Part shown: one piece after another, positions 6,445 to 55,417 of the stretch
Layout: every line of letters begins with the position of its first letter
How positions within the stretch are numbered: position 1 is the first letter of the stretch
Source of the DNA: Escherichia phage PSD2001
Direction: 5' to 3' (one strand)
Length of the DNA: 64,000 nt
Sequence record: OK254198.1
The notes under the pieces: generated by a model
The model's input: the letters and a program-made list of their open reading frames with translations, nothing else
Databases searched by the model: none
Told to the model about the DNA's origin: nothing
Position numbers and translations under genes: made by a program

Positions 6445-6987
6445 TTAATCCACCGTTTTTAATAGGCCTCGTGATTTTAAGTAGTTAGCTTTTTCTAGGA
6501 CCTGTGAAGCATACTTATTACCAGCTTTCACATTCCACCCTGCGTTATATGATGATAGTGTTTTCCTTATATCCCCCTTATGAATATTCAACCAGTATGA
6601 AAGCTCAATATAAGCCCAGCGTGCACTGTTCTCTCTCTTGCTTATCATCTTGATTATTTCTTTATCTGTCATTGTCCACCCAACCTGTTTCACGCGTTCG
6701 CGGACGGTTGGAAGATAATTTTGGAATATACCATATGCGTGATGCTTATCTTTATTTAATCCAGTATTAACCCCAGCAGAACTTTCCTGCCAGGTTAAAC
6801 CAGCCATGATATATCCCAAACCATTATGTTGGTGCGGATTTTCTTTGTACTTACCATTTTTCTGGAACTGTTCTCCAAACGCATAAGCATATTGGAGGTT
6901 CTCCATTTGTTCATTACTGAAAGTAGGCTCTACGCTATGGGCAGACATACTAACTGTCAATAGTAAGGTGGCGATTACTTTTTTCAT
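6445..6987 (-). CDS. Secreted lytic transglycosylase-like protein (SLT/lysozyme-like domain)
   Basis: 180 aa; signal peptide 'MKKVIATLLLTVSMSAHS'; 'TWQESSAG...AYGIFQ' matches SLT catalytic E-S ... A-x-G-hh-Q motif. Confidence 0.65.
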   Translation of the reverse strand: MKKVIATLLLTVSMSAHSVEPTFSNEQMENLQYAYAFGEQFQKNGKYKENPHQHNGLGYIMAGLTWQESSAGVNTGLNKDKHHAYGIFQNYLPTVRERVKQVGWTMTDKEIIKMISKRENSARWAYIELSYWLNIHKGDIRKTLSSYNAGWNVKAGNKYASQVLEKANYLKSRGLLKTVD

Positions 6988-6997
6988 GAATTCCCCA

Positions 6998-7456
6998 TTA
7001 GATATAAATCACTTTTGTGCTAATTTTTCCTTCCAGACGATTAGAGTTAACAAACGCCATACGGCAACACATGGTCGGAGACTTCCCAGGAAGAGCTGGG
7101 TTAACTGTCATTCCTAACCATAGGTTCTTGTCTGTGATTTCCAGACGAAGTGGACGATAGTTCACATTCGGGTCAATTTGTGCTTCAACTTCCGGGAGTG
7201 GTTTCATCTCCAGGAATTCAACGATTTCTTTTACATGTGGTGTGATTTTTCCAAACAAATCAAAAACATATTGTTCATCAATTTCACGTTGGATTGCACG
7301 GTCCAACAGGTGTGGACTGTACTTAATGAAGAATGCTTCAAGGCCTGCTTCTTTACAAGCCTTGTTGATAGCATTATTAATTTTGAGGAACTCCGTTTCA
7401 AAAATGCGACGAAGTTTATTGCGGCGAATGTAAACACTTGAATCGATAGTAGTCAT
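6998..7456 (-). CDS. regB: RegB-like endoribonuclease
   Basis: 152 aa from ATG with SD AAGGAG; 'IRRNKLRRIFETEF...KYSPHLLDRAIQREIDEQYVFDLF...LRLEITDKNLWLG' closely parallels T4 RegB as recalled. Confidence 0.85.
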   Translation of the reverse strand: MTTIDSSVYIRRNKLRRIFETEFLKINNAINKACKEAGLEAFFIKYSPHLLDRAIQREIDEQYVFDLFGKITPHVKEIVEFLEMKPLPEVEAQIDPNVNYRPLRLEITDKNLWLGMTVNPALPGKSPTMCCRMAFVNSNRLEGKISTKVIYI

Positions 7457-9304: not shown

Positions 9305-9604
9305 TTAGAAAGAACCAGAACCTTTAATTGTGTTCTGGCGACCTTTATTTTCCAATTCAGAATGGTCAATTTCATATGCTTGTGCCACGCCAAAAGCCTT
9401 TTTAACTTTAGCTAAAGAACCTTTAGATGTAACAATATTAAAAGTATTACCTTTGGTAAAATCAACCAAATCCACTTGCACACCCTGTTTACCGAGGCTT
9501 GCTACAATGGCATCAACATATTGTTGGTCTAAATTGCCTTGAACCCCAATTTGAAATGCTTTAGGAGCTTTGGCTTCAGTAATAAATTCTTGATAAGTTT
9601 TCAT
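9305..9604 (-). CDS. Internal-protein-like, capsid-targeting N-terminus (MKTYQEFITE)
   Basis: 99 aa; first 10 aa match the T4 internal-protein CTS decapeptide ending in I-x-E (gp21 site); preceded by PeSS promoter. Confidence 0.7.
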   Translation of the reverse strand: MKTYQEFITEAKAPKAFQIGVQGNLDQQYVDAIVASLGKQGVQVDLVDFTKGNTFNIVTSKGSLAKVKKAFGVAQAYEIDHSELENKGRQNTIKGSGSF

Positions 9605-9609
9605 TTTAT

Positions 9610-9662
9610 TCTCTCTAAGTTGATGGGATAATTATGCACTATCCCATCAAAAAGTAAACAGT
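9610..9662 (-). promoter_or_regulatory. PeSS-like early promoter (-35 TGTTTAC, -10 CATAAT inside GATGGGATAG/TATCCCATC inverted repeat)
   Basis: Inverted repeat brackets -10; 17-nt spacer. Confidence 0.6.
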
Positions 9663-9925
9663 TATGCTTTACCGCCAGAAACAATACCAAAGGTCTCAAA
9701 GTCCCATTCAATATCGTCAACATCAACTTTCTTACCAGCAACCACGAATGCGATTTCGCGACGTTTTGCATAGGTGACAATTTCTTTACCATCGCCGCCA
9801 AAGAAAGAATAACCATTGCGCTTCATGGTGCCAAAGTCTTCAGCATCACCAGCGAATGCGCGGACTTTAAAGGAACCAGCAGGAGCTTTGGCAGATTCAG
9901 TAATAAATTCTTGATAAGTTTTCAT
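9662..9925 (-). CDS. Internal-protein-like, capsid-targeting N-terminus (MKTYQEFITE)
   Basis: 87 aa from internal ATG; 35 nt at the 5' end identical to 9305..9604 gene start; mature region differs. Confidence 0.7.
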   Translation of the reverse strand: MKTYQEFITESAKAPAGSFKVRAFAGDAEDFGTMKRNGYSFFGGDGKEIVTYAKRREIAFVVAGKKVDVDDIEWDFETFGIVSGGKA

Positions 9926-9973
9926 TTTATATTCCATTGTTTGGTTGATAAAATCATTATACAACCTTTTTAG

Positions 9974-10390
9974 TTAAGCGTACACAGCTTTCCCATAGTA
10001 TTTGTACCAGGTAGGTTTTTGAGAAATTTTCTCATTCAGTCTGGCTTGACTGATTTCAATTGACCAGATTGATGGTTGATAATCATTTTTCCATTCATCA
10101 GGAATATCACTTAAATCTTGGGTAGAAATATCTTTTATGTTAAACCCTCGCTTTAAACATTCTGCAATAAGTTCTTGATGACGGTTTTTAAGGAACAAAA
10201 GTTTATCATAAAAGAAGGTAACATGACCAGTCCCTAAAAGAAAAGATGATGGAATTTTAAAGTCAGAAACCTTTTTACCATTTTGTACATGCTTACGAAC
10301 AGCACCAAAAACGCGAGGAAGTTCACGATATTCAGCCATAAGATGTTGGTCAGCAAGTTCAGATACCAGGGTCAAATTAATGCGAGTCAT
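9974..10390 (-). CDS. denV: Endonuclease V (pyrimidine-dimer DNA glycosylase)
   Basis: 138 aa from '[31 protein letters not shown]...', near-identical to T4 EndoV N-terminus as recalled. Confidence 0.95.
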
Positions 10391-10418
10391 GTTTGTTCTC
10401 CTATGTTTGTAGGAGAAC

Positions 10419-10447
10419 ATTATATCACACGTATCGTGGAAGTAAAC
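10419..10447 (-). promoter_or_regulatory. T4-type early promoter upstream of denV (-35 GTTTAC, -10 TATAAT)
   Basis: Minus-strand GTTTAC-17nt-TATAAT about 30 nt upstream of ATG. Confidence 0.5.
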
Positions 10448-10449
10448 TG

Positions 10450-10752
10450 TTATTTACCTTTAATTGCTTTAGCTGCTTCGATAGCCGCTTGCTGAAGGTC
10501 ATCCATAGACATACCGAACTTAGAAGCAAAGTTATCAATTTTCTTTTCGACAGAATTCAAAGGCTTGGCCTGTTTACCTTCATTAGCGCCAGGGAGAGCT
10601 AGAATACGCTCTTTGTCAATATAAAGGCTTACAAGTTTCTTACGGTCTTTATCTGGTAAATCATGAAATGAATGGGCCTTTTTATTTACAGCGGCTTCTA
10701 ATTTACCTGCACTTACGCGCGCTTCGGTGATAAATTCTTTATACGTTTTCAT
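10450..10752 (-). CDS. Internal protein II-like ([23 protein letters not shown])
   Basis: 100 aa; CTS N-terminus; located between e and denV exactly where T4 carries ipIII/ipII. Confidence 0.75.
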
Positions 10753-10760
10753 ATTTTACC

Positions 10761-11252
10761 TTATTTGTATGCGCTAAAAGTTCCGGTACGGAACGTTTCT
10801 ATAACTCGTTTGGCTCGGTTCGGAGTCTGGACTTTATACCATCTCGAGTCAGCCAGTTCCTTGGCGGCGGCTTCCCACGATTTGGCCTTCAACAATCGCA
10901 TACCCTTAGGAAAACCAGCAACACCAGCAACACCCATCTGGAATACCATATTAATGAGTGCACAACGACGAACTTCATCTAGCACATCATAAACAGGTTT
11001 TAAGACAGGGTGTCTCAAGATTCCGGCTTTAGCTTTTTCGACCGAACGGTTAAACAATGTTTCAGCTTCGTGCTGGGTTATGCGACCATTACAGACGCGA
11101 CCCATGAGCTTGTCGAGCTCGGCACGAGCAACATCTTTTGATGGGTTCTTAGTTATCAGTTGCCCGATACCAATGGTCCAATAGCCTTCAGTATCTTTAT
11201 ACAAATCCAACTTACAACCTTCATCTATACGTAACATTTCGAATATATTCAT
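10761..11252 (-). CDS. e: Endolysin (T4 lysozyme family)
   Basis: '[35 protein letters not shown]...' matches T4 lysozyme incl. catalytic E11/D20/T26 context. Confidence 0.97.
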
Positions 11253-18789: not shown

Positions 18790-18848
18790 CAGTGTTTTAT
18801 TTGTTAACTCAGTATGGGATAATTATACACTATCCCACCTGGAAGTAA
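18790..18848 (-). promoter_or_regulatory. PeSS-like early promoter (-10 TATAAT inside GGGATAG/TATCCC inverted repeat)
   Basis: Minus-strand read TTTACTTCC-AGGTGGGATAGTG-TATAAT-TATCCCATACTGAG. Confidence 0.55.
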
Positions 18849-19739: not shown

Positions 19740-19815
19740 TGGTACCTCTAGAAGGACTCGAACCCTCACCTTTAACCTTAGAACGATTATATGCTATCCG
19801 TTACACTATAGAGGC
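19740..19815 (-). tRNA. tRNA-Arg (anticodon TCT), CCA encoded
   Basis: Manual fold: acceptor GCCTCTA/TAGAGGT (one G-U), D-arm, anticodon stem TAATC/GGTTA with loop GTTCTAA, T-arm GAGGG-TTCGAGT-CCTTC, then ACCA. Confidence 0.8.
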
Positions 19816-20466
19816 AATTAAATTATTTACAATATCATCTTTATAAACTTCGGCATAATGCAGTTCATAAATTTTCCAACCTGCGGCTTTTATGATATCA
19901 TGTCTTTCTTTATAATATGGGGCCAAAATCTTTTGTTTTGGATTGGAATAATGTTGATTTCCATTAACTTCAATAATTATTTTCTTATCTATTAAAGCAA
20001 TATCACAAGAATATGCTCGGTTTTCAACTGCCTGATATTCTTCGACAAATATAATACCAGCTTCAAGCAGTTTGGTTTTTAAAAATTCACACGGCACCGA
20101 TTTAAATTTAGTATTCTTTTTCCAAGGGTGTTTATCGGGATTTTCTTTTAACCATTTCTTTCTTCCATCAGAAATTCGTTTTATAGATTCGGGAGAGTGT
20201 TCTCTGCCTAGCGAAGCGACTGATAATTTTTCTCGAGTTTCCGCAGAAACGACAAACGGGACACCTGTCTTTTTAGCTACTACAAATTGATTTAAATTCC
20301 CAGATTCTATACGAGCTTTATTCATCGCAGCAACTGCAGTTTTAGAACCCTCTTTATAGGAATCTAACTTAGGGTTAGATGGACACCATCTTGTATGATT
20401 AGCCATCCAGCCTTTAGGCTTGTTAGAAGTATCAAATTCTTTATTACAATGTTTGCAGATGCTCAT
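19801..20466 (-). CDS. Putative homing endonuclease: N-terminal Zn-finger, NUMOD3-like motif, C-terminal Vsr-like (PD-(D/E)xK, DUF559-type) nuclease
   Basis: 221 aa; 'CKHCNKEF...HTRWC'; 'SAETREKLSVASLGREHSPESIKRIS'; C-term 'IIEVNGNQHY...ERHDIIKAAGWKIYEL'; lies between two tRNAs. Confidence 0.6.
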   Translation of the reverse strand: MSICKHCNKEFDTSNKPKGWMANHTRWCPSNPKLDSYKEGSKTAVAAMNKARIESGNLNQFVVAKKTGVPFVVSAETREKLSVASLGREHSPESIKRISDGRKKWLKENPDKHPWKKNTKFKSVPCEFLKTKLLEAGIIFVEEYQAVENRAYSCDIALIDKKIIIEVNGNQHYSNPKQKILAPYYKERHDIIKAAGWKIYELHYAEVYKDDIVNNLIASIV

Positions 20467-20527: not shown

Positions 20528-20602
20528 TGACCCAGACCAGATTTGAACTGGTAACCTTTCCCTTATGAGGGGACTGCTGCTAACCAATTGAGCTACAGGG
20601 CC
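20528..20602 (-). tRNA. tRNA with anticodon CAT (Met or Ile2)
   Basis: Manual fold: acceptor GGCCCTG, anticodon loop CTCATAA, perfect T-arm ACCAG-TTCAAAT-CTGGT; one acceptor mismatch and a 3-bp D-stem. Confidence 0.7.
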
Positions 20603-21859: not shown

Positions 21860-22045
21860 TTACTCACCTTTGGAGATTTTATCCATAACGAAAGAGATTG
21901 AACCAATTAAAAATGCAACTACTAAAGAGATTATATTCTCAGAAGTTGAAAGCATATTCAACATAAAGCCAGCAAACATGCTAAAACCAAAAGCGGTAAC
22001 AGCAACAATGGCAGTAACATTTCTAATTAATTCGCAACGTTTCAT
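21860..22045 (-). CDS. Hypothetical small membrane protein
   Basis: 61 aa with two hydrophobic helices; PeSS upstream. Confidence 0.5.
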   Translation of the reverse strand: MKRCELIRNVTAIVAVTAFGFSMFAGFMLNMLSTSENIISLVVAFLIGSISFVMDKISKGE

Positions 22046-22047
22046 TT

Positions 22048-22100
22048 TATTCTCCTCAGTAGTTGATGGGATAATTATACTGCAACTATCCCATCACGTA
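22048..22100 (-). promoter_or_regulatory. PeSS-like early promoter (GTGTAC ... GATGGGATAG-TTGCAG-TATAAT-TATCCCATC)
   Basis: Near-identical to copy at 22384..22438. Confidence 0.6.
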
Positions 22101-22102
22101 CA

Positions 22103-22381
22103 CTAAATTTTTGTATATTGTCCAGCTTTAACTTTTTTCAGTTCACGAGGGCTTACCGCGTAAGTGAATGGAGCATTCCAGGAAGAACTGACTTTGTAAC
22201 CTTTAGTCAACATCATTGCTGAAACTTTCTTGTTATCAGGACCGTTTTCGCCTTTAACAAGAAACAACTCAAATGCGCCACCATCAACCGGTCTGGCCTT
22301 AACCATCAGATGTCCTTTCAGGTCTTCCAGCATATCCGGGTGATTAATTGATTCGTTAATAAATTCTTGATAAGTTTTCAT
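22103..22381 (-). CDS. Internal-protein-like, CTS N-terminus (MKTYQEFINE)
   Basis: 92 aa; CTS decapeptide with I-N-E cleavage motif; PeSS upstream. Confidence 0.7.
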   Translation of the reverse strand: MKTYQEFINESINHPDMLEDLKGHLMVKARPVDGGAFELFLVKGENGPDNKKVSAMMLTKGYKVSSSWNAPFTYAVSPRELKKVKAGQYTKI

Positions 22382-22383
22382 TA

Positions 22384-22438
22384 GTAGCTCCAGTAGTTGA
22401 TGGGATAATTATACTGCAACTATCCCATCGTGTACATT
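22384..22438 (-). promoter_or_regulatory. PeSS-like early promoter (duplicate of 22048..22100 copy)
   Basis: GTACAC-GATGGGATAGTTGCAG-TATAAT-TATCCCATCAACTACTGGAG. Confidence 0.6.
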
Positions 22439-22736
22439 ACATTTTTGAACCACGAATTACACCATAAGCGGCGAAGTCGTCAGAAATATCTTTAGGAGAG
22501 TTCTTACCAGTTTCAATGAAGGCAATGCTTGACTTCTGACTAAAAGAGGTAATTTTGTTATAGTTGGAGTCAAGGAAGGTATAACCATTTTTACGCAGCT
22601 GGTCAAAGTCTTCAGCGTCGCCTTTACCTTTGAAGTCAACCCATTTGTAGGTGTTTTTCTTCTGAAGACCCAGAGGCCAGGTTTTTGCTTCTGCCAGGTA
22701 ATTGTTTTCTACCAAAAATTCATGAAAAGTTTGCAT
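22437..22736 (-). CDS. Internal-protein-like, degenerate CTS (MQTFHEFLVE)
   Basis: 99 aa; N-terminus matches the CTS pattern M-x-T-[YF]-x-E-F-h-x-E. Confidence 0.6.
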   Translation of the reverse strand: MQTFHEFLVENNYLAEAKTWPLGLQKKNTYKWVDFKGKGDAEDFDQLRKNGYTFLDSNYNKITSFSQKSSIAFIETGKNSPKDISDDFAAYGVIRGSKM

Positions 22737-22744
22737 TTGAAATC

Positions 22745-23017
22745 CTATTTTAGATAAATTGCGTATTTTTTATAACCAGCCGTCTCATGACGGAGACCCT
22801 TGTCATTGGCAAAACGCTCAATGTTATTAATTTGGTTCTGGTCAAGTTCTGAAATGTCAAACGCGAAAAAGTTGCGTTTGTTGCCAATTGTTATATGGTC
22901 AGTTAAGTCAATGCTATACAGGTGATTGATATTGTCAATCATAGCTTTGACTGCTTTACTAATTTTTACTTCTTCATTCAGTTGTGACTCGTTGAAAAGT
23001 TCATTGAAAGTTTTCAT
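22745..23017 (-). CDS. Internal-protein-like, degenerate CTS (MKTFNELFNE)
   Basis: 90 aa. Confidence 0.55.
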   Translation of the reverse strand: MKTFNELFNESQLNEEVKISKAVKAMIDNINHLYSIDLTDHITIGNKRNFFAFDISELDQNQINNIERFANDKGLRHETAGYKKYAIYLK

Positions 23018-23025
23018 AAGAAACC

Positions 23026-23358
23026 TTATTTATAAAGTTTTGCCAGTTCTTTACGTCCGCGAGCAGACATAATAAATTGTTCATCGCCAATTTTAAAATA
23101 AGCCATACCACCGTCAACAGCGATACCAATTTCTTTAGTACCTTCTTTGCCTTTCCACTTGCCACCAGATTTCAGGACAGCTTCAACTGCAGCTTTGGAA
23201 TATTTGGACGTTTGAAAACGTTCATTACCAATCTGAAAGAAAACACCATCTGCGTTTTTGGTTAAACCAAATTTCAGAGAGCCTTCACTATCATCAATTG
23301 ATTTGGTCTCATTGATGGCGGATTCGGCTAAAAACTCGTTATAAGTTTTGATGTTCAT
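23026..23358 (-). CDS. Internal-protein-like, CTS variant (MNIKTYNEFLAE)
   Basis: 110 aa from internal ATG; adjacent to 57B where T4 has ipI. Confidence 0.6.
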   Translation of the reverse strand: MNIKTYNEFLAESAINETKSIDDSEGSLKFGLTKNADGVFFQIGNERFQTSKYSKAAVEAVLKSGGKWKGKEGTKEIGIAVDGGMAYFKIGDEQFIMSARGRKELAKLYK

Positions 23359-23359
23359 T

Positions 23360-23415
23360 TTAACTCCGTTTGTTCGTTGGTGTAGGAGCATAATACTGCA
23401 CCTACACTCATTTGT
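23360..23415 (-). promoter_or_regulatory. PeSS-like early promoter (-35 GTGTACA, -10 TATTAT bracketed by TGTAGGTG/CCTACACC inverted repeat)
   Basis: Same promoter-in-hairpin architecture with a different stem sequence. Confidence 0.55.
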
Positions 23416-23418
23416 ACA

Positions 23419-24109
<691 letters not shown>

Positions 24110-24110
<1 letters not shown>

Positions 24111-24787
24111 TATATTACCTTATTAATTTTATCAAAAAGTTCTTCGAGTGTGCCATCGTTTTTAATAACAATGTCACTAGCTAGTGGTGGAAGTCCAGCT
24201 TCCGTAATGTGTGTATCAGTAGAATGATTTGCTTCATCGCGTTCTACAAAGATTATTGTAGCACCCATCGCCCGAAGCGAATCAAGTTCGTTCTTTTGGC
24301 GAACATCTGGGACAACGTAATATTTATATCCAGAATAGAGGTTGTCAAGATAGTCGCAGGCAAAAGTTTTAATCCAAAACATGCTGTCGAACTCTGTACA
24401 AACAATATCAGTTCCAAGGGTCTGCATGAAACGTCTAACTGTCCAGGGCTCAACATTATTTAGTGTGTGAAATTCAATAATTTTACGAACCATATCCGGA
24501 TTCGGAAGGTCAAGATTGTATTGTTGTTTCAACCATTCAAGAGCATCAACCAGAAGAATATAAGCTTCGGTGTTGTTCATTATTAAGGTTTTTTCACGGT
24601 CGTAACCTTGTCCATCAAAATTTTCCAGGGTCAAATTGTGTGGCAGGTCTTGACGAATCCACGCGTTATAAAGCGCTTCTTTAATCGGACCTGCAAGCTG
24701 CCACTTTGTTCCATTTTGACTAATAACATAATCAGCAGTCGTATCTTTACCACTGCGTTTTTTACCCACAATCGCAATTAATTTCAT
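24110..24787 (-). CDS. 1: Deoxynucleoside monophosphate kinase (gp1)
   Basis: P-loop 'GKKRSGKDTTADY'; 'YQLAGPIKEAL', 'TDTHITEAGLP' as in T4 gp1. Confidence 0.93.
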
Positions 24788-53500: not shown

Positions 53501-53928
53501 TGTTTATTATCCCTGATGATTACGAATTAACTCTTGAAAACATCGAAAGTGTTTCCGAAGAAGCTCAGGGACAATTTGATTCATTATCTGAAGCCTTAGA
53601 AAAAGACGATATAAATATTATTGTAGAAAACATGTTTGCAGCCGGTGAATACGAAAAAGCAACGGTTATCGGCGCTCTGAATGAAGGTGTTCAGCTTAAC
53701 GAATTTATCGTTAAACATGTATCGTCTCGCGGTGAGTTAACCCGCACAAAAGACCGAGCTACTCGTAAGCGTAATGCTTTCCAAACAACTGGTCTTTCTA
53801 AAGCTAAACGTCGTCAAATTGCCCGTCTGGCTACTAAAACGAAAAGAGCAAACCCATCTACGCAAATTAGAGCAGAGCGCAAGCGCAAAAAAGCTCGAGC
53901 TAAGCGTAAAGCATTCGGACTTGATTAA
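53500..53928 (+). CDS. 68: Prohead core protein gp68
   Basis: 142 aa, basic C-terminus; order. Confidence 0.85.
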
Positions 53929-54566
53929 TGGAACAGAAACCAGAGTTACTAATCGAACACTGGGGTCAACCGGGCGAAATTAAAGATGGTGTACCGATGT
54001 TGGAATCTCATGATGGTTCCAGCAGCGGTTTAAAGCCAGGACTTTATATTGAAGGTATTTTCCTACAAGCTGAAGTTGTTAACCGTAATAAACGACTTTA
54101 TCCTAAACATATTTTGGAAAAAGCTGTTGCGGACTATATCGCCGAACAGGTTGAAACCAAGCAGTCTCTTGGAGAATTAAACCATCCACCTCGTGCAAAC
54201 GTTGACCCTATGCAGGCGGCAATTATTATCGAGGAAATGTGGTGGAAAGGGAATGATGTATATGGCCGCGCGCGTATTATCGAAGGCGACCATGGCCCAG
54301 GTGATAAACTTGCTGCGAATATAAGAGCAGGTTGGATTCCTGGCGTATCTAGTCGTGGACTTGGTTCCCTGACTAAATCAGCAAAAGGTTATAGCATCGT
54401 TAATGAAGGTTTTAAATTGACGGTTGGAGTAGACGCAGTATGGGGGCCAAGTGCTCCGGACGCTTGGGTCAAACCAAAGCAGATTACAGAATCACAAACG
54501 GCTGTTGCCGATACCAGTGCCGATGACGCCTTTATGGCTCTCGCAGAGGCTTTAAAGACGTTATAA
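53928..54566 (+). CDS. 21: Prohead core protease gp21
   Basis: 212 aa (T4 gp21 212 aa); order. Confidence 0.92.
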   Translation: MEQKPELLIEHWGQPGEIKDGVPMLESHDGSSSGLKPGLYIEGIFLQAEVVNRNKRLYPKHILEKAVADYIAEQVETKQSLGELNHPPRANVDPMQAAIIIEEMWWKGNDVYGRARIIEGDHGPGDKLAANIRAGWIPGVSSRGLGSLTKSAKGYSIVNEGFKLTVGVDAVWGPSAPDAWVKPKQITESQTAVADTSADDAFMALAEALKTL

Positions 54567-54598: not shown

Positions 54599-55417
54599 AT
54601 GCTTAAAGAACAACTCATTTCTGAAGCTCAGAATATCGATGCTTCCGTTGCTCTCGATAGTATTTTCGAATCAGTTAATTTGTCCCCGGAAGCGAAAGCT
54701 ACCTTCGGCACTGTATTCGAAGCTACCGTCAAGCAACACGCCATCAAACTGGCAGAATCTCACATTCACGCCATCGCTGAAAAAGCTGAAGAAGAAGTCG
54801 AAAAGAATAAAGAAGAATCCGACGAAAAAGCAGAGAAAAAACTGAAAGAATCTGCAGCTAAATTCCTGGACCACGTTGCTAAAGAATGGCTCGCTGAAAA
54901 TAAACTGGCTGTCGACCGCGGCATTAAAGCTGACCTGTTCGAATCCATGTTCACCGGCATGAAAGAACTGTTCGTTGAGCACAACGTTGTTGTTCCAGAA
55001 GAATCTGTCGATGTTGTTGCAGAAATGCAGGAAGAACTGGCTGAACAGAAAGAAGAAACCGCTAATCTGTTCGAAGAAGTTGCTAAGCGTGATGCTTATA
55101 TCAATTATGTCCAACGTGAAGTTGCGTTGACTGAAGCGACTAAAGACCTGACTGAATCCCAAAAAGAAAAAGTTGGTTCTCTGGTAGAAGGCATGGAATA
55201 CTCTGATGCATTCGGTACCAAAATTGGCGCTATCGTTGAAATGGTTAAAGGTCAGGTAGAACCCACCAACAAACCAATCACCGAAGCCGCTATAAATAAA
55301 AATGTAGACGATGCTGCGGCACTGAATTACATTTCAGAAGCAGTTGAAGAAAAAGGCGCCAAGCCTACCCTGTCCTTCGCGGACTTGTCTGCTCTCGCAG
55401 CATCACGAATTTCTTAA
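54599..55417 (+). CDS. 22: Prohead core scaffold protein gp22
   Basis: 272 aa, highly acidic coiled-coil; order. Confidence 0.92.
   Translation: MLKEQLISEAQNIDASVALDSIFESVNLSPEAKATFGTVFEATVKQHAIKLAESHIHAIAEKAEEEVEKNKEESDEKAEKKLKESAAKFLDHVAKEWLAENKLAVDRGIKADLFESMFTGMKELFVEHNVVVPEESVDVVAEMQEELAEQKEETANLFEEVAKRDAYINYVQREVALTEATKDLTESQKEKVGSLVEGMEYSDAFGTKIGAIVEMVKGQVEPTNKPITEAAINKNVDDAAALNYISEAVEEKGAKPTLSFADLSALAASRIS
55291..55298 (+). promoter_or_regulatory. Late promoter TATAAATA inside gene 22 (gene 23)
   Basis: Exact consensus ~140 nt upstream of gene 23 ATG. Confidence 0.55.

Follow-up and report, generated by a model that had tools for sequence, protein, structure and literature searches.

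The stretch analysed here is a window of 64 kb (64,000 nucleotides, sequence record OK254198.1) from Escherichia phage PSD2001, a T4-like phage of the genus Gaprivervirus (VR7/VR20/SP18/P479 group). Its subject is an array of four back-to-back minus-strand open reading frames (ORFs), B1 to B4, between trna.4 and 57B/Acb1, at the position of the internal protein gene ipI in T4. All four begin with a variant of the N-terminal capsid-targeting sequence (CTS) of T4-like internal proteins (IPs). The reading favoured here, to which we give a probability of about 75%, is that B1 to B4 are packaged, CTS-targeted internal proteins whose genes are shuffled by recombination at the CTS and at promoter-early stem-loop elements (PeSLs; PMC2839356); that they are anti-defence inhibitors is held with less assurance, at little better than even odds. 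The array is the known variable internal protein (ip) locus of T4-like phages and is ordinary in kind: the ip phenomenon has been known since the 1990s and was being actively studied in 2025, and the locus is already in GenBank, with two of its four genes annotated as internal head proteins. The shuffled arsenal of injected proteins proposed in a first-pass annotation of this DNA is supported and had already been established (Repoila 1994, as relayed in Silas 2025; Arbiol 2010; Silas 2025). New, and modest, are the identification of B1 and B4 as unannotated members, a predicted fold for B4, the finding of B3 relatives without a CTS and a mapped PeSL deletion of an Ip6-type cassette.

The first-pass annotation had reported four consecutive CTS-bearing ORFs at 22103–23358, and all of them were found there on the minus strand (a slash marks the putative cleavage site of the prohead protease gp21):

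22103–22381, minus strand: B1, 92 amino acids, MKTYQEFINE/S; mature protein about 9.1 kDa, pI 9.6
22437–22736, minus strand: B2, 99 amino acids, MQTFHEFLVE/N; phrog_2667, 'internal head protein'
22745–23017, minus strand: B3, 90 amino acids, MKTFNELFNE/S; phrog_7673, 'internal head protein'
23026–23358, minus strand: B4, 110 amino acids, beginning MNIKTYNEFLAE; MNI-KTYNEFLAE/S, with the CTS shifted by two residues

In a six-frame translation of the window, the core motif [KQR]T[YF]xE[FL][LIF]xE occurs exactly seven times, always as the N-terminus of an ORF of 87–110 amino acids, four times in the B array and three times in a second ip locus, locus A, next to the lysozyme gene e and denV. The earlier count of seven members is thereby reproduced, and with no occurrence of the motif in 100 shuffles the B-array observation is far from chance. 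A 36-nt direct-repeat family (D1) spans all four B ORF starts, and each ATG is preceded at 6–9 nt by a purine-rich stretch resembling a Shine-Dalgarno sequence (GGAG, AAGG or AGGA).

At the ipI locus, 32 distinct N-termini yield the CTS logo M-K-T-[YF]-x-E-F-[IL]-x-E-[SA]. In T4, the first 10 residues of IPIII are enough for packaging, with residues 4 and 7 of the CTS needed for targeting and residues 8 and 10 for processing by gp21 (review of Black's work, PMC9026906). An aromatic residue at position 4 and the glutamate of the cleavage site are kept in all four B ORFs, the targeting residues being Y4/F7 in B1, F4/F7 in B2, F4/L7 in B3 and, following the two-residue extension, Y and F at the same spacing in B4. 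The context for gp21 cleavage (L or I at P3, E at P1 and a small residue at P1') is canonical in B1 (INE/S) and B4 (LAE/S). T4 IPII and IPIII both carry MKTYQEFIAE and IPI carries MKTFKEF, and it is T4 IPI that B2 resembles in its F4, to which it adds L8. The B3 of phage P479 has F7, unlike the L7 of the window, while more distant B2 orthologues carry the canonical MKTYQEFINE, B3 orthologues elsewhere MKTYQEFIAE, and B4 homologues in other genera begin MKTY. Judged by these comparisons, what the first-pass annotation had called graded variants result from in-place drift of a standard CTS. Codons within the CTS differ synonymously (ACT/ACG, ATT/ATC, GAA/GAG), from which it follows that selection acts on the peptide.

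The head proteins gp20, gp67, gp21, gp22, gp23 and gp24 are all encoded in the same window as the B array, among them the protease and the scaffold:

53928–54566, plus strand: gp21 prohead protease (Peptidase_S77, E = 8e-102)
54599–55417, plus strand: gp22 scaffold (T4_CASP, E = 6e-91)

Conserved motifs of the LxE/[AS] type are present in gp23 (FLTE/A at residue 63) and gp24 (LLRE/S at residue 10), which we take to correspond to the known T4 cleavage sites.

The claim that the array occupies the T4 ipI position agrees with the gene order. Upstream of the array lie 57B/Acb1, then 57A and gene 1, and downstream trna.4 and trna.3, which is the T4 order trna.4-ipI-57B-57A-1 and agrees with the annotation of VR20. 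Two of these genes served as conserved anchors:

23419–23874, minus strand: 57B/Acb1, upstream anchor, 2H phosphoesterase directed against CBASS, an antiphage signalling system based on cyclic oligonucleotides (Pfam Acb1, E = 1.3e-59)
21860–22045, minus strand: trna.4 homologue, downstream anchor, a predicted membrane protein of 61 amino acids

Round the array, 2.4 kb of the window share 98.2% identity with Escherichia phage P479 and 93–97% with VR20, VR7, SP18 and others. The interval from 57B to trna.4 was compared in 28 IMG/VR contigs together with T4, VR20 and P479. These 31 loci hold one to five CTS genes each, whose bodies come, in varying combinations and orders, from 13 or more families unrelated to one another. 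Of the 64 ORFs that reach 55 amino acids, 62 carry a CTS; the two without one (L010 and L021) look like start-codon or truncation artefacts. With the families coded as F3 (B4), F2 (B3), F5 (B2), F6 (B1), F1 (Ip6) and F10 (T4 IPI), the orders from 57B to trna.4 are as follows:

Window and P479: F3-F2-F5-F6
VR20: F3-F2-F5-F6-F1
VR25: F3-F2-F5-F1
Locus L005: F3-F2-F8-F1
Tequatrovirus-type loci: F4-F2, F1-F4-F2, F8-F1, F7, F2-F7, F10 (T4 IPI) and others

B1 is absent in VR25 and L005, B2 is swapped in L005, and ip6 is absent in the window. The combinatorial content of the 31 loci, with breakpoints at PeSL and CTS boundaries, bears out the description of the locus as shuffled.

Three 'PeSS' cassettes had been described as interleaved with the ORFs. 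Three such elements do exist, under the proper name PeSL, and only the middle one lies between ORFs of the array, the other two flanking it:

23359–23425, minus strand: PeSL-like element 3, between 57B and B4; hairpin of -16.5 kcal/mol, z = -2.5
23418–23390, minus strand: sigma70-type promoter of element 3, TGTACA-17-TATTAT, with the hairpin round the -10 box
22382–22444, minus strand: PeSL-like element 2, between B2 and B1; -17.3 kcal/mol, z = -2.6; repeat family D2
22436–22408, minus strand: promoter of element 2, TGTACA-17-TATAAT, its -10 box enclosed by the hairpin GATGGGATAG/TATCCCATC
22046–22110, minus strand: PeSL-like element 1, between B1 and trna.4; -21.9 kcal/mol, z = -5.1

All three share a TGTAC[A/G]-17-TAT[A/T]AT promoter with the -10 box in the hairpin loop, and elements 1 and 2 are 93% identical over 57 nt. 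Two of the three pass a promoter scan (10/12 and 9/12 matches) and the third is off by one -35 base; none is followed by a T-run after its hairpin, and a terminator scan reported none of the three. RNAalifold, applied to 14 PeSLs anchored at the -10 box, returned no consensus structure because the 5' arms are out of register, so that conservation of the hairpin is argued from individual folds alone. T4 ipI, ipII and ipIII, and most ip cassettes elsewhere, show the same promoter-in-hairpin architecture with other stem sequences, the element upstream of T4 ipI reading GTTTAC...GATGAGGTAG-TGATACTAT-TACCTCATC. The gaps between B4 and B3 and between B3 and B2 are only 8 nt each and contain no PeSL, which implies the transcription units [B4-B3-B2], [B1] and [trna.4...], with element 3 as the likely early promoter of the B4-B3-B2 operon. 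A promoter consensus of another class was found directly upstream of B3:

23027–23034, minus strand: T4-type late-promoter consensus TATAAATA, 17 nt before the ATG of B3, made up of the final codons of B4 and its stop

Matches to this consensus number 19 in the window, where 5.2 +/- 2.2 would be expected. A second one at 24321–24328, upstream of 57A, could supply late read-through.

As in RB49, phi1 and other T4-like phages, the elements combine a sigma70-like early promoter with a stem-loop between small non-essential genes in a hyperplastic region (PMC2839356, PMC4122927), and as in the PeSL mini-circle model, indels among the relatives are bounded by elements, with crossover in a shared core (PMC2839356). 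PeSLs of the RB49/phi1 type have a separate G-rich/C-rich stem, whereas the hairpins in the window enclose the -10 box, with no T-run after them; here, too, not every cassette has a PeSL of its own, and the 30 nt coding for the CTS form a second patch of homology. A further PeSL-type element lies at 18814–18838 on the minus strand, upstream of small ORFs beyond the tRNA genes, and has nearly the same stem as the PeSLs of the ip loci (GGTGGGATAG-TGTATAAT-TATCCCA).

How the elements may act as crossover sites can be followed in close relatives. From B1 into the PeSL after it, window and VR20 are identical as far as TATAATTATCCCATCAACTACTG; beyond this point the window continues with the trna.4 leader and VR20 with ip6. 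The breakpoint between presence and absence of ip6 (window 22046–22110 compared with 6772–7120 of VR20, L006) falls inside the shared core TATAATTATCCCATCAACTA. Element 1 is chimeric: its left part matches the PeSL located before ip6 in VR20, and its right part is the trna.4 leader. The PeSL before trna.4 in VR20 differs from element 1 in its left arm. This is the pattern expected of a PeSL x PeSL crossover that deleted ip6. In VR25, ip6 stands in place of B1 directly after B2, and homology with the window spans the PeSL and the CTS (ATGAAAACTTATCAAGAATTTATTAA) and ends at codon 11. In L005 it is B2 that has given way to another body, from the end of the CTS onwards and with no PeSL involved. 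The question had been raised whether each cassette of PeSL, CTS and body moves independently. The cassettes do, but the moving unit does not always include a PeSL: B3 and B2 lack one, and exchanges in that part of the array break at the CTS itself. The identity between window and VR20 is a mosaic (B1 99.3%, B2 90.0%, B3 96.0%, B4 96.4%); values for the stretch upstream of 57B are disregarded, an indel having upset the ungapped comparison. Body families also move between the two ip loci: in Salmonella phage STP4-a the B4 family is located between e and denV, where the window has IPII, and the F7 family, found at the ipI locus elsewhere, appears from inspection of the unaligned N-termini to be the counterpart of the locus-A ORF A1. 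Two PeSLs of L024 (5454–5530 and 5802–5862) combine a 5' arm GGGGTTTTAG or ATAGGGTAG with a 3' arm of another type, TACCTCATC; these mismatched arms look like footprints of recombination within the shared -10/loop sequence.

The bodies behind the CTS had been described as unrelated and of 80–100 amino acids. The mature proteins measure 80–98 amino acids (9.1–10.7 kDa), and three of the four are basic (pI 9.1–9.6), B3 having a pI of 6.8. Stripped of the CTS, they show no mutual similarity in BLASTP, and in profile-profile comparison with hhalign of all 78 pairs of the 13 families the top probability is 11.6%. What does not hold is unrelatedness throughout the window, since B2 has a paralogue in locus A at 9662–9925 (38% identity, E = 5e-15, BLASTP). 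Against T4 IPI, IPII and IPIII, BLASTP with the bodies of B1 to B4 gave no similarity (all E > 0.1), hhalign probabilities against the F1/Ip6 and F10/IPI profiles stay below 12%, and no Pfam match above the curated cut-offs was obtained for any of the four; PDB sequence searches returned no match for B1, for B3 or for the profile of B4. Phage records with intact orthologues number 17 (of 50,697) for B1, 192 for B2, 172 for B3 and 55 for B4. Nei-Gojobori ratios of nonsynonymous to synonymous substitution (dN/dS) against orthologues are 0.05 for B2, 0.00–0.11 for B3 and 0.02 for B4, the last reaching 0.26 in the most divergent pair; where dS is unsaturated the ratios of B2 to B4 are 0.02–0.11, and these three genes are under strong purifying selection.

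Functional expectations come from internal proteins studied elsewhere. In T4, Ip1, Ip2 and Ip3 act against type IV restriction enzymes of the GmrSD kind, each inhibiting another one (PMC12373910), and Bas37_0260, which phage Bas37 encodes with a CTS at its ipI locus, blocks McrBC (bioRxiv 10.1101/2025.11.20.689424); all IPs with a known target act on type IV restriction systems. T4 IPI, IPII and IPIII share genomic positions, an N-terminal CTS and size class with B1 to B4. The differences are that T4 has one gene at the ipI position where the window has four, and that B1 to B4 resemble IPI to IPIII only in the CTS. The Ip5, Ip6 and Ip9 of the VR7, VR20, VR25 and related Gaprivervirus records, whose locus is 93–98% identical to the window, are annotated there as 'putative internal head proteins'; B1 and B4 are 'hypothetical protein' in all records seen, save for one 'profilin' for B4. 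The Ip6 cassette of VR20 and VR25 is the one missing from the window. Bas37_0260 (Bas37/KarlGJung, MZ501089), a CTS gene of demonstrated anti-type IV function at the same locus next to trna.4, belongs to this Ip6/F1 family and is unrelated to B1 to B4; at 78% identity to VR20 Ip6, it indicates that an Ip6-type cassette is precisely what the window lacks.

On the favoured reading, each precursor would use its CTS to dock onto the gp22/gp21 scaffolding core and so enter the prohead, where gp21 would cut the CTS off after its terminal glutamate, leaving a mature protein of 9–11 kDa inside the head. This protein would exit with the DNA at infection and could then act in the host before phage gene expression. 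Each unrelated body would have a target of its own, and the array would be rebuilt by homologous recombination, with the PeSL promoter/stem-loop and the 30 nt coding for the CTS as crossover sites. For B1 to B4, packaging, cleavage, injection and the existence of anti-defence targets are steps that we infer.

Several points weigh against this reading, in its packaging part or its anti-defence part. The cleavage context of B2 (LVE/N) has N at P1', a canonical LAE/A being present at residues 14–16, and B3 has the most divergent CTS, with L7, F8 and a site FNE/S with F at P3. A perfect late promoter stands directly upstream of B3 only, and late expression of B4 and B1 for packaging is assumed to come from read-through or continued use of the early promoters. 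The substitutions in B1 are too few for a selection test. None of B1 to B4 is similar, by BLASTP or hhalign, to any IP with a known target; ten further ip genes were inactive against the GmrSD panel of Silas et al. (PMC12373910), and the literature searched yielded nothing on virion proteomics of VR7-group phages or on 'Ip9', and no data from N-terminal mapping or injection for the four proteins or their orthologues. Some Gaprivervirus phages are without recognisable enzymes for the synthesis of hydroxymethylcytosine (hmC) or other non-canonical bases (Tevenvirinae survey, PMC8056088), so that nucleases specific for glucosylated hmC may not be the relevant enemy.

The alternative that survives best, itself improbable, also has the proteins packaged and gives them a role within the capsid: they would be basic proteins associated with the DNA, serving as filler or for condensation, or would help the prohead to assemble. 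The basic character of three of the four mature proteins fits it, as do findings on the T4 IPs: a head contains about 360 copies of them, they bind DNA when salt is low, and head assembly slows when IPIII is lost (PMC9026906); the fold predicted for B4, Whirly/PUR-like and typical of single-stranded nucleic-acid binders, would suit it as well. Such a role leaves unexplained why there are at least 13 unrelated families, why near-identical phages differ in the presence or absence of members, and why B3, which is not basic (pI 6.8), has a CTS-less homologue in siphoviruses; moreover, every IP of assigned function is a defence inhibitor. Somewhat less probable again is that B1 to B4 are accessory proteins of the usual kind, made early and active in the cytoplasm; the decapeptide and the sequence upstream of it would then persist as a cassette for translation initiation and recombination and not as a working targeting signal, at least in the drifted leaders of B2 and B3. 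All three promoters beside the array are of the early sigma70 type, B2 and B3 have drifted CTSs where distant orthologues keep MKTYQEF, and the B3 body is CTS-less in other phages, all of which would be natural for such proteins. Conservation of the CTS amino acids despite synonymous changes would not be, nor would the position-4 aromatic and cleavage glutamate in all four ORFs (T4 IPI itself has MKTF) or the late-promoter consensus directly upstream of B3, and in T4 the first 10 residues alone suffice for packaging (PMC9026906). That a single ancestral gene was duplicated and the four are its fragments or decaying remnants, as the tandem layout, the shared N-termini and the D1 repeats over the four starts might suggest, is rejected on the 11.6% ceiling over the 78 family pairs, which answers the refuting condition named in the first-pass annotation, and it also disagrees with the BLASTP results, the strong purifying selection on B2 to B4, the intact orthologues (55–192 records for B2 to B4, 17 in one genus for B1) and the distinct predicted folds of B4 and B2.

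Returning to packaged and shuffled internal proteins as the preferred reading, the locus matters mainly as a source of candidates. Most ip families are still without an assigned target, and it offers four intact ones that can be tested against defence libraries; the established ip model is unchanged and its catalogue is extended. A more speculative extension, which we regard as possible and as appreciably less probable than the anti-defence role, is that the CTS is a portable tag with which T4-like phages convert proteins that other phages use free-standing, as early accessory or anti-defence factors, into injected effectors; the arsenal might then exceed nuclease inhibitors (with B4 as a single-stranded nucleic-acid binder, for example), and B1 might be an ORFan effector with a new target.

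This extension draws on B3. The protein is the Ip9 of VR7 and VR20 (100% identical in VR7), and its 172 records are labelled Ip9 or 'internal head protein'. Homologues of its body without a CTS, about 50% identical over the whole body, are encoded amid small accessory genes in Kagunavirus and Seuratvirus siphoviruses (at least 12 Kagunavirus records and one of Seuratvirus); they are 72–74 amino acids long, lack both CTS and linker and begin at about residue 19 of the body. Two of them are:

L032:2507–2725: CTS-less B3 homologue of Kagunavirus JSSK01
L033:2492–2716: CTS-less B3 homologue of Seuratvirus SHIN8

Their existence indicates that the body works alone in the cell and is not a component of head structure. 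The homology also indicates that the B3 body is an autonomous module onto which T4-like phages attached a loading tag, and it suggests a simple route by which injected effectors could be recruited. Several siphovirus records label these homologues 'internal head protein', probably an error of annotation transfer, since those phages are without the CTS and gp21 system. B2, for its part, is VR7ORF154c, with the RefSeq label 'internal head protein'; its AlphaFold2 model is of the alpha/beta type, with a predicted local distance difference test (pLDDT) score of 71.7 and no significant or informative fold match in the PDB.

Neither public annotation nor PHROGs lists B1 or B4 as an IP. B1 belongs to the VR7ORF153c family (phrog_15565, 'unknown function') and, clustered at 90%, makes up just one cluster in a set of 5.8e9 proteins. 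Searched exhaustively with HMMER, its body retrieved its own cluster and two short repeat-motif matches, with no full-length relative among 1.84e9 representatives, and all 17 phage records that contain it are Gaprivervirus and annotate it as 'hypothetical'. B1 is a true ORFan restricted to this genus. Its C-terminal 25–30 residues (about 61–89; window 22106–22200, minus strand) resemble a motif that recurs 6–10 times in two giant MBG-repeat proteins (P0018, E = 5.6e-12; P0019, E = 1.7e-5), a match that is probably a resemblance of short beta-hairpin motifs, i.e., motif-level noise, and not homology.

B4 is VR7ORF156c (phrog_3966, 'unknown function'). The short start used here has GGAG 8 nt before the ATG and is the one in the VR20 record. 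A longer start at 23391 was rejected, as its ATG overlaps the promoter's -10 region and is absent in VR20. The P479 annotation (MW269952 158304–158669) and a longest-ORF rule both begin B4 33 nt too early, within the promoter. An AlphaFold2 model built on a 12-sequence alignment is of moderate confidence, with a mean pLDDT of 76.7 (82–89 in the body), and consists of two tandem beta4-alpha units, as a Whirly/PUR domain requires. The two halves are also alike in sequence (score 48 versus 20.9 +/- 4.1, with none of 2000 shuffles as high), and the body is an internal tandem duplication of the beta4-alpha unit. Compared with known folds, the model scores 9.1 with MRP2, 8.9 with MRP1, 7.7 each with an SsgA-like protein and PBF-2/p24, 7.4 with Pur-alpha and 6.5 with StWhy2, and a Whirly/PUR-like fold is predicted for B4 on this basis, at an identity to these Whirly/PUR-repeat proteins (MRP1/MRP2, PBF-2 p24, StWhy2, Pur-alpha, SsgA-like) of only 8–13%. 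Pfam models (Whirly, PurA, SsgA) gave no match to B4 at E <= 1 and the PDB no sequence match, and among viral models the only confident Foldseek matches were members of its own family. The 'profilin' label is attached to an identical protein in the record of EAWsc9 (PQ341120) and looks like a spurious structure-based label.

The three CTS ORFs outside the array are those of locus A:

9305–9604, minus strand: A1, CTS ORF
9662–9925, minus strand: A2, CTS ORF, the paralogue of B2
10450–10752, minus strand: A3, IPII orthologue, 95.6% identical to T4 IPII over the mature region

Locus A (9305–11252, minus strand) has the order e - IPII orthologue - denV - A2 - A1, that of T4 being denV - ipII - ipIII - e, and contains no IPIII homologue. 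Among the CTS ORFs of the window, orthology to Ip2 was found only for A3. The stem GATGGGATAG/TATCCCATC, common to two PeSLs of the B array, recurs in the PeSL upstream of A1. Elsewhere in the window, an ORF of 221–238 amino acids on the minus strand (19801–20466) with a C-terminal match to RAP/DUF559 (Vsr-like endonuclease) sits between tRNA-Arg (19740–19815) and tRNA-Met (20528–20602), two genes that are just 2 nt apart in VR20; it is probably a mobile or homing endonuclease, comparable to segB in the tRNA cluster of T4.

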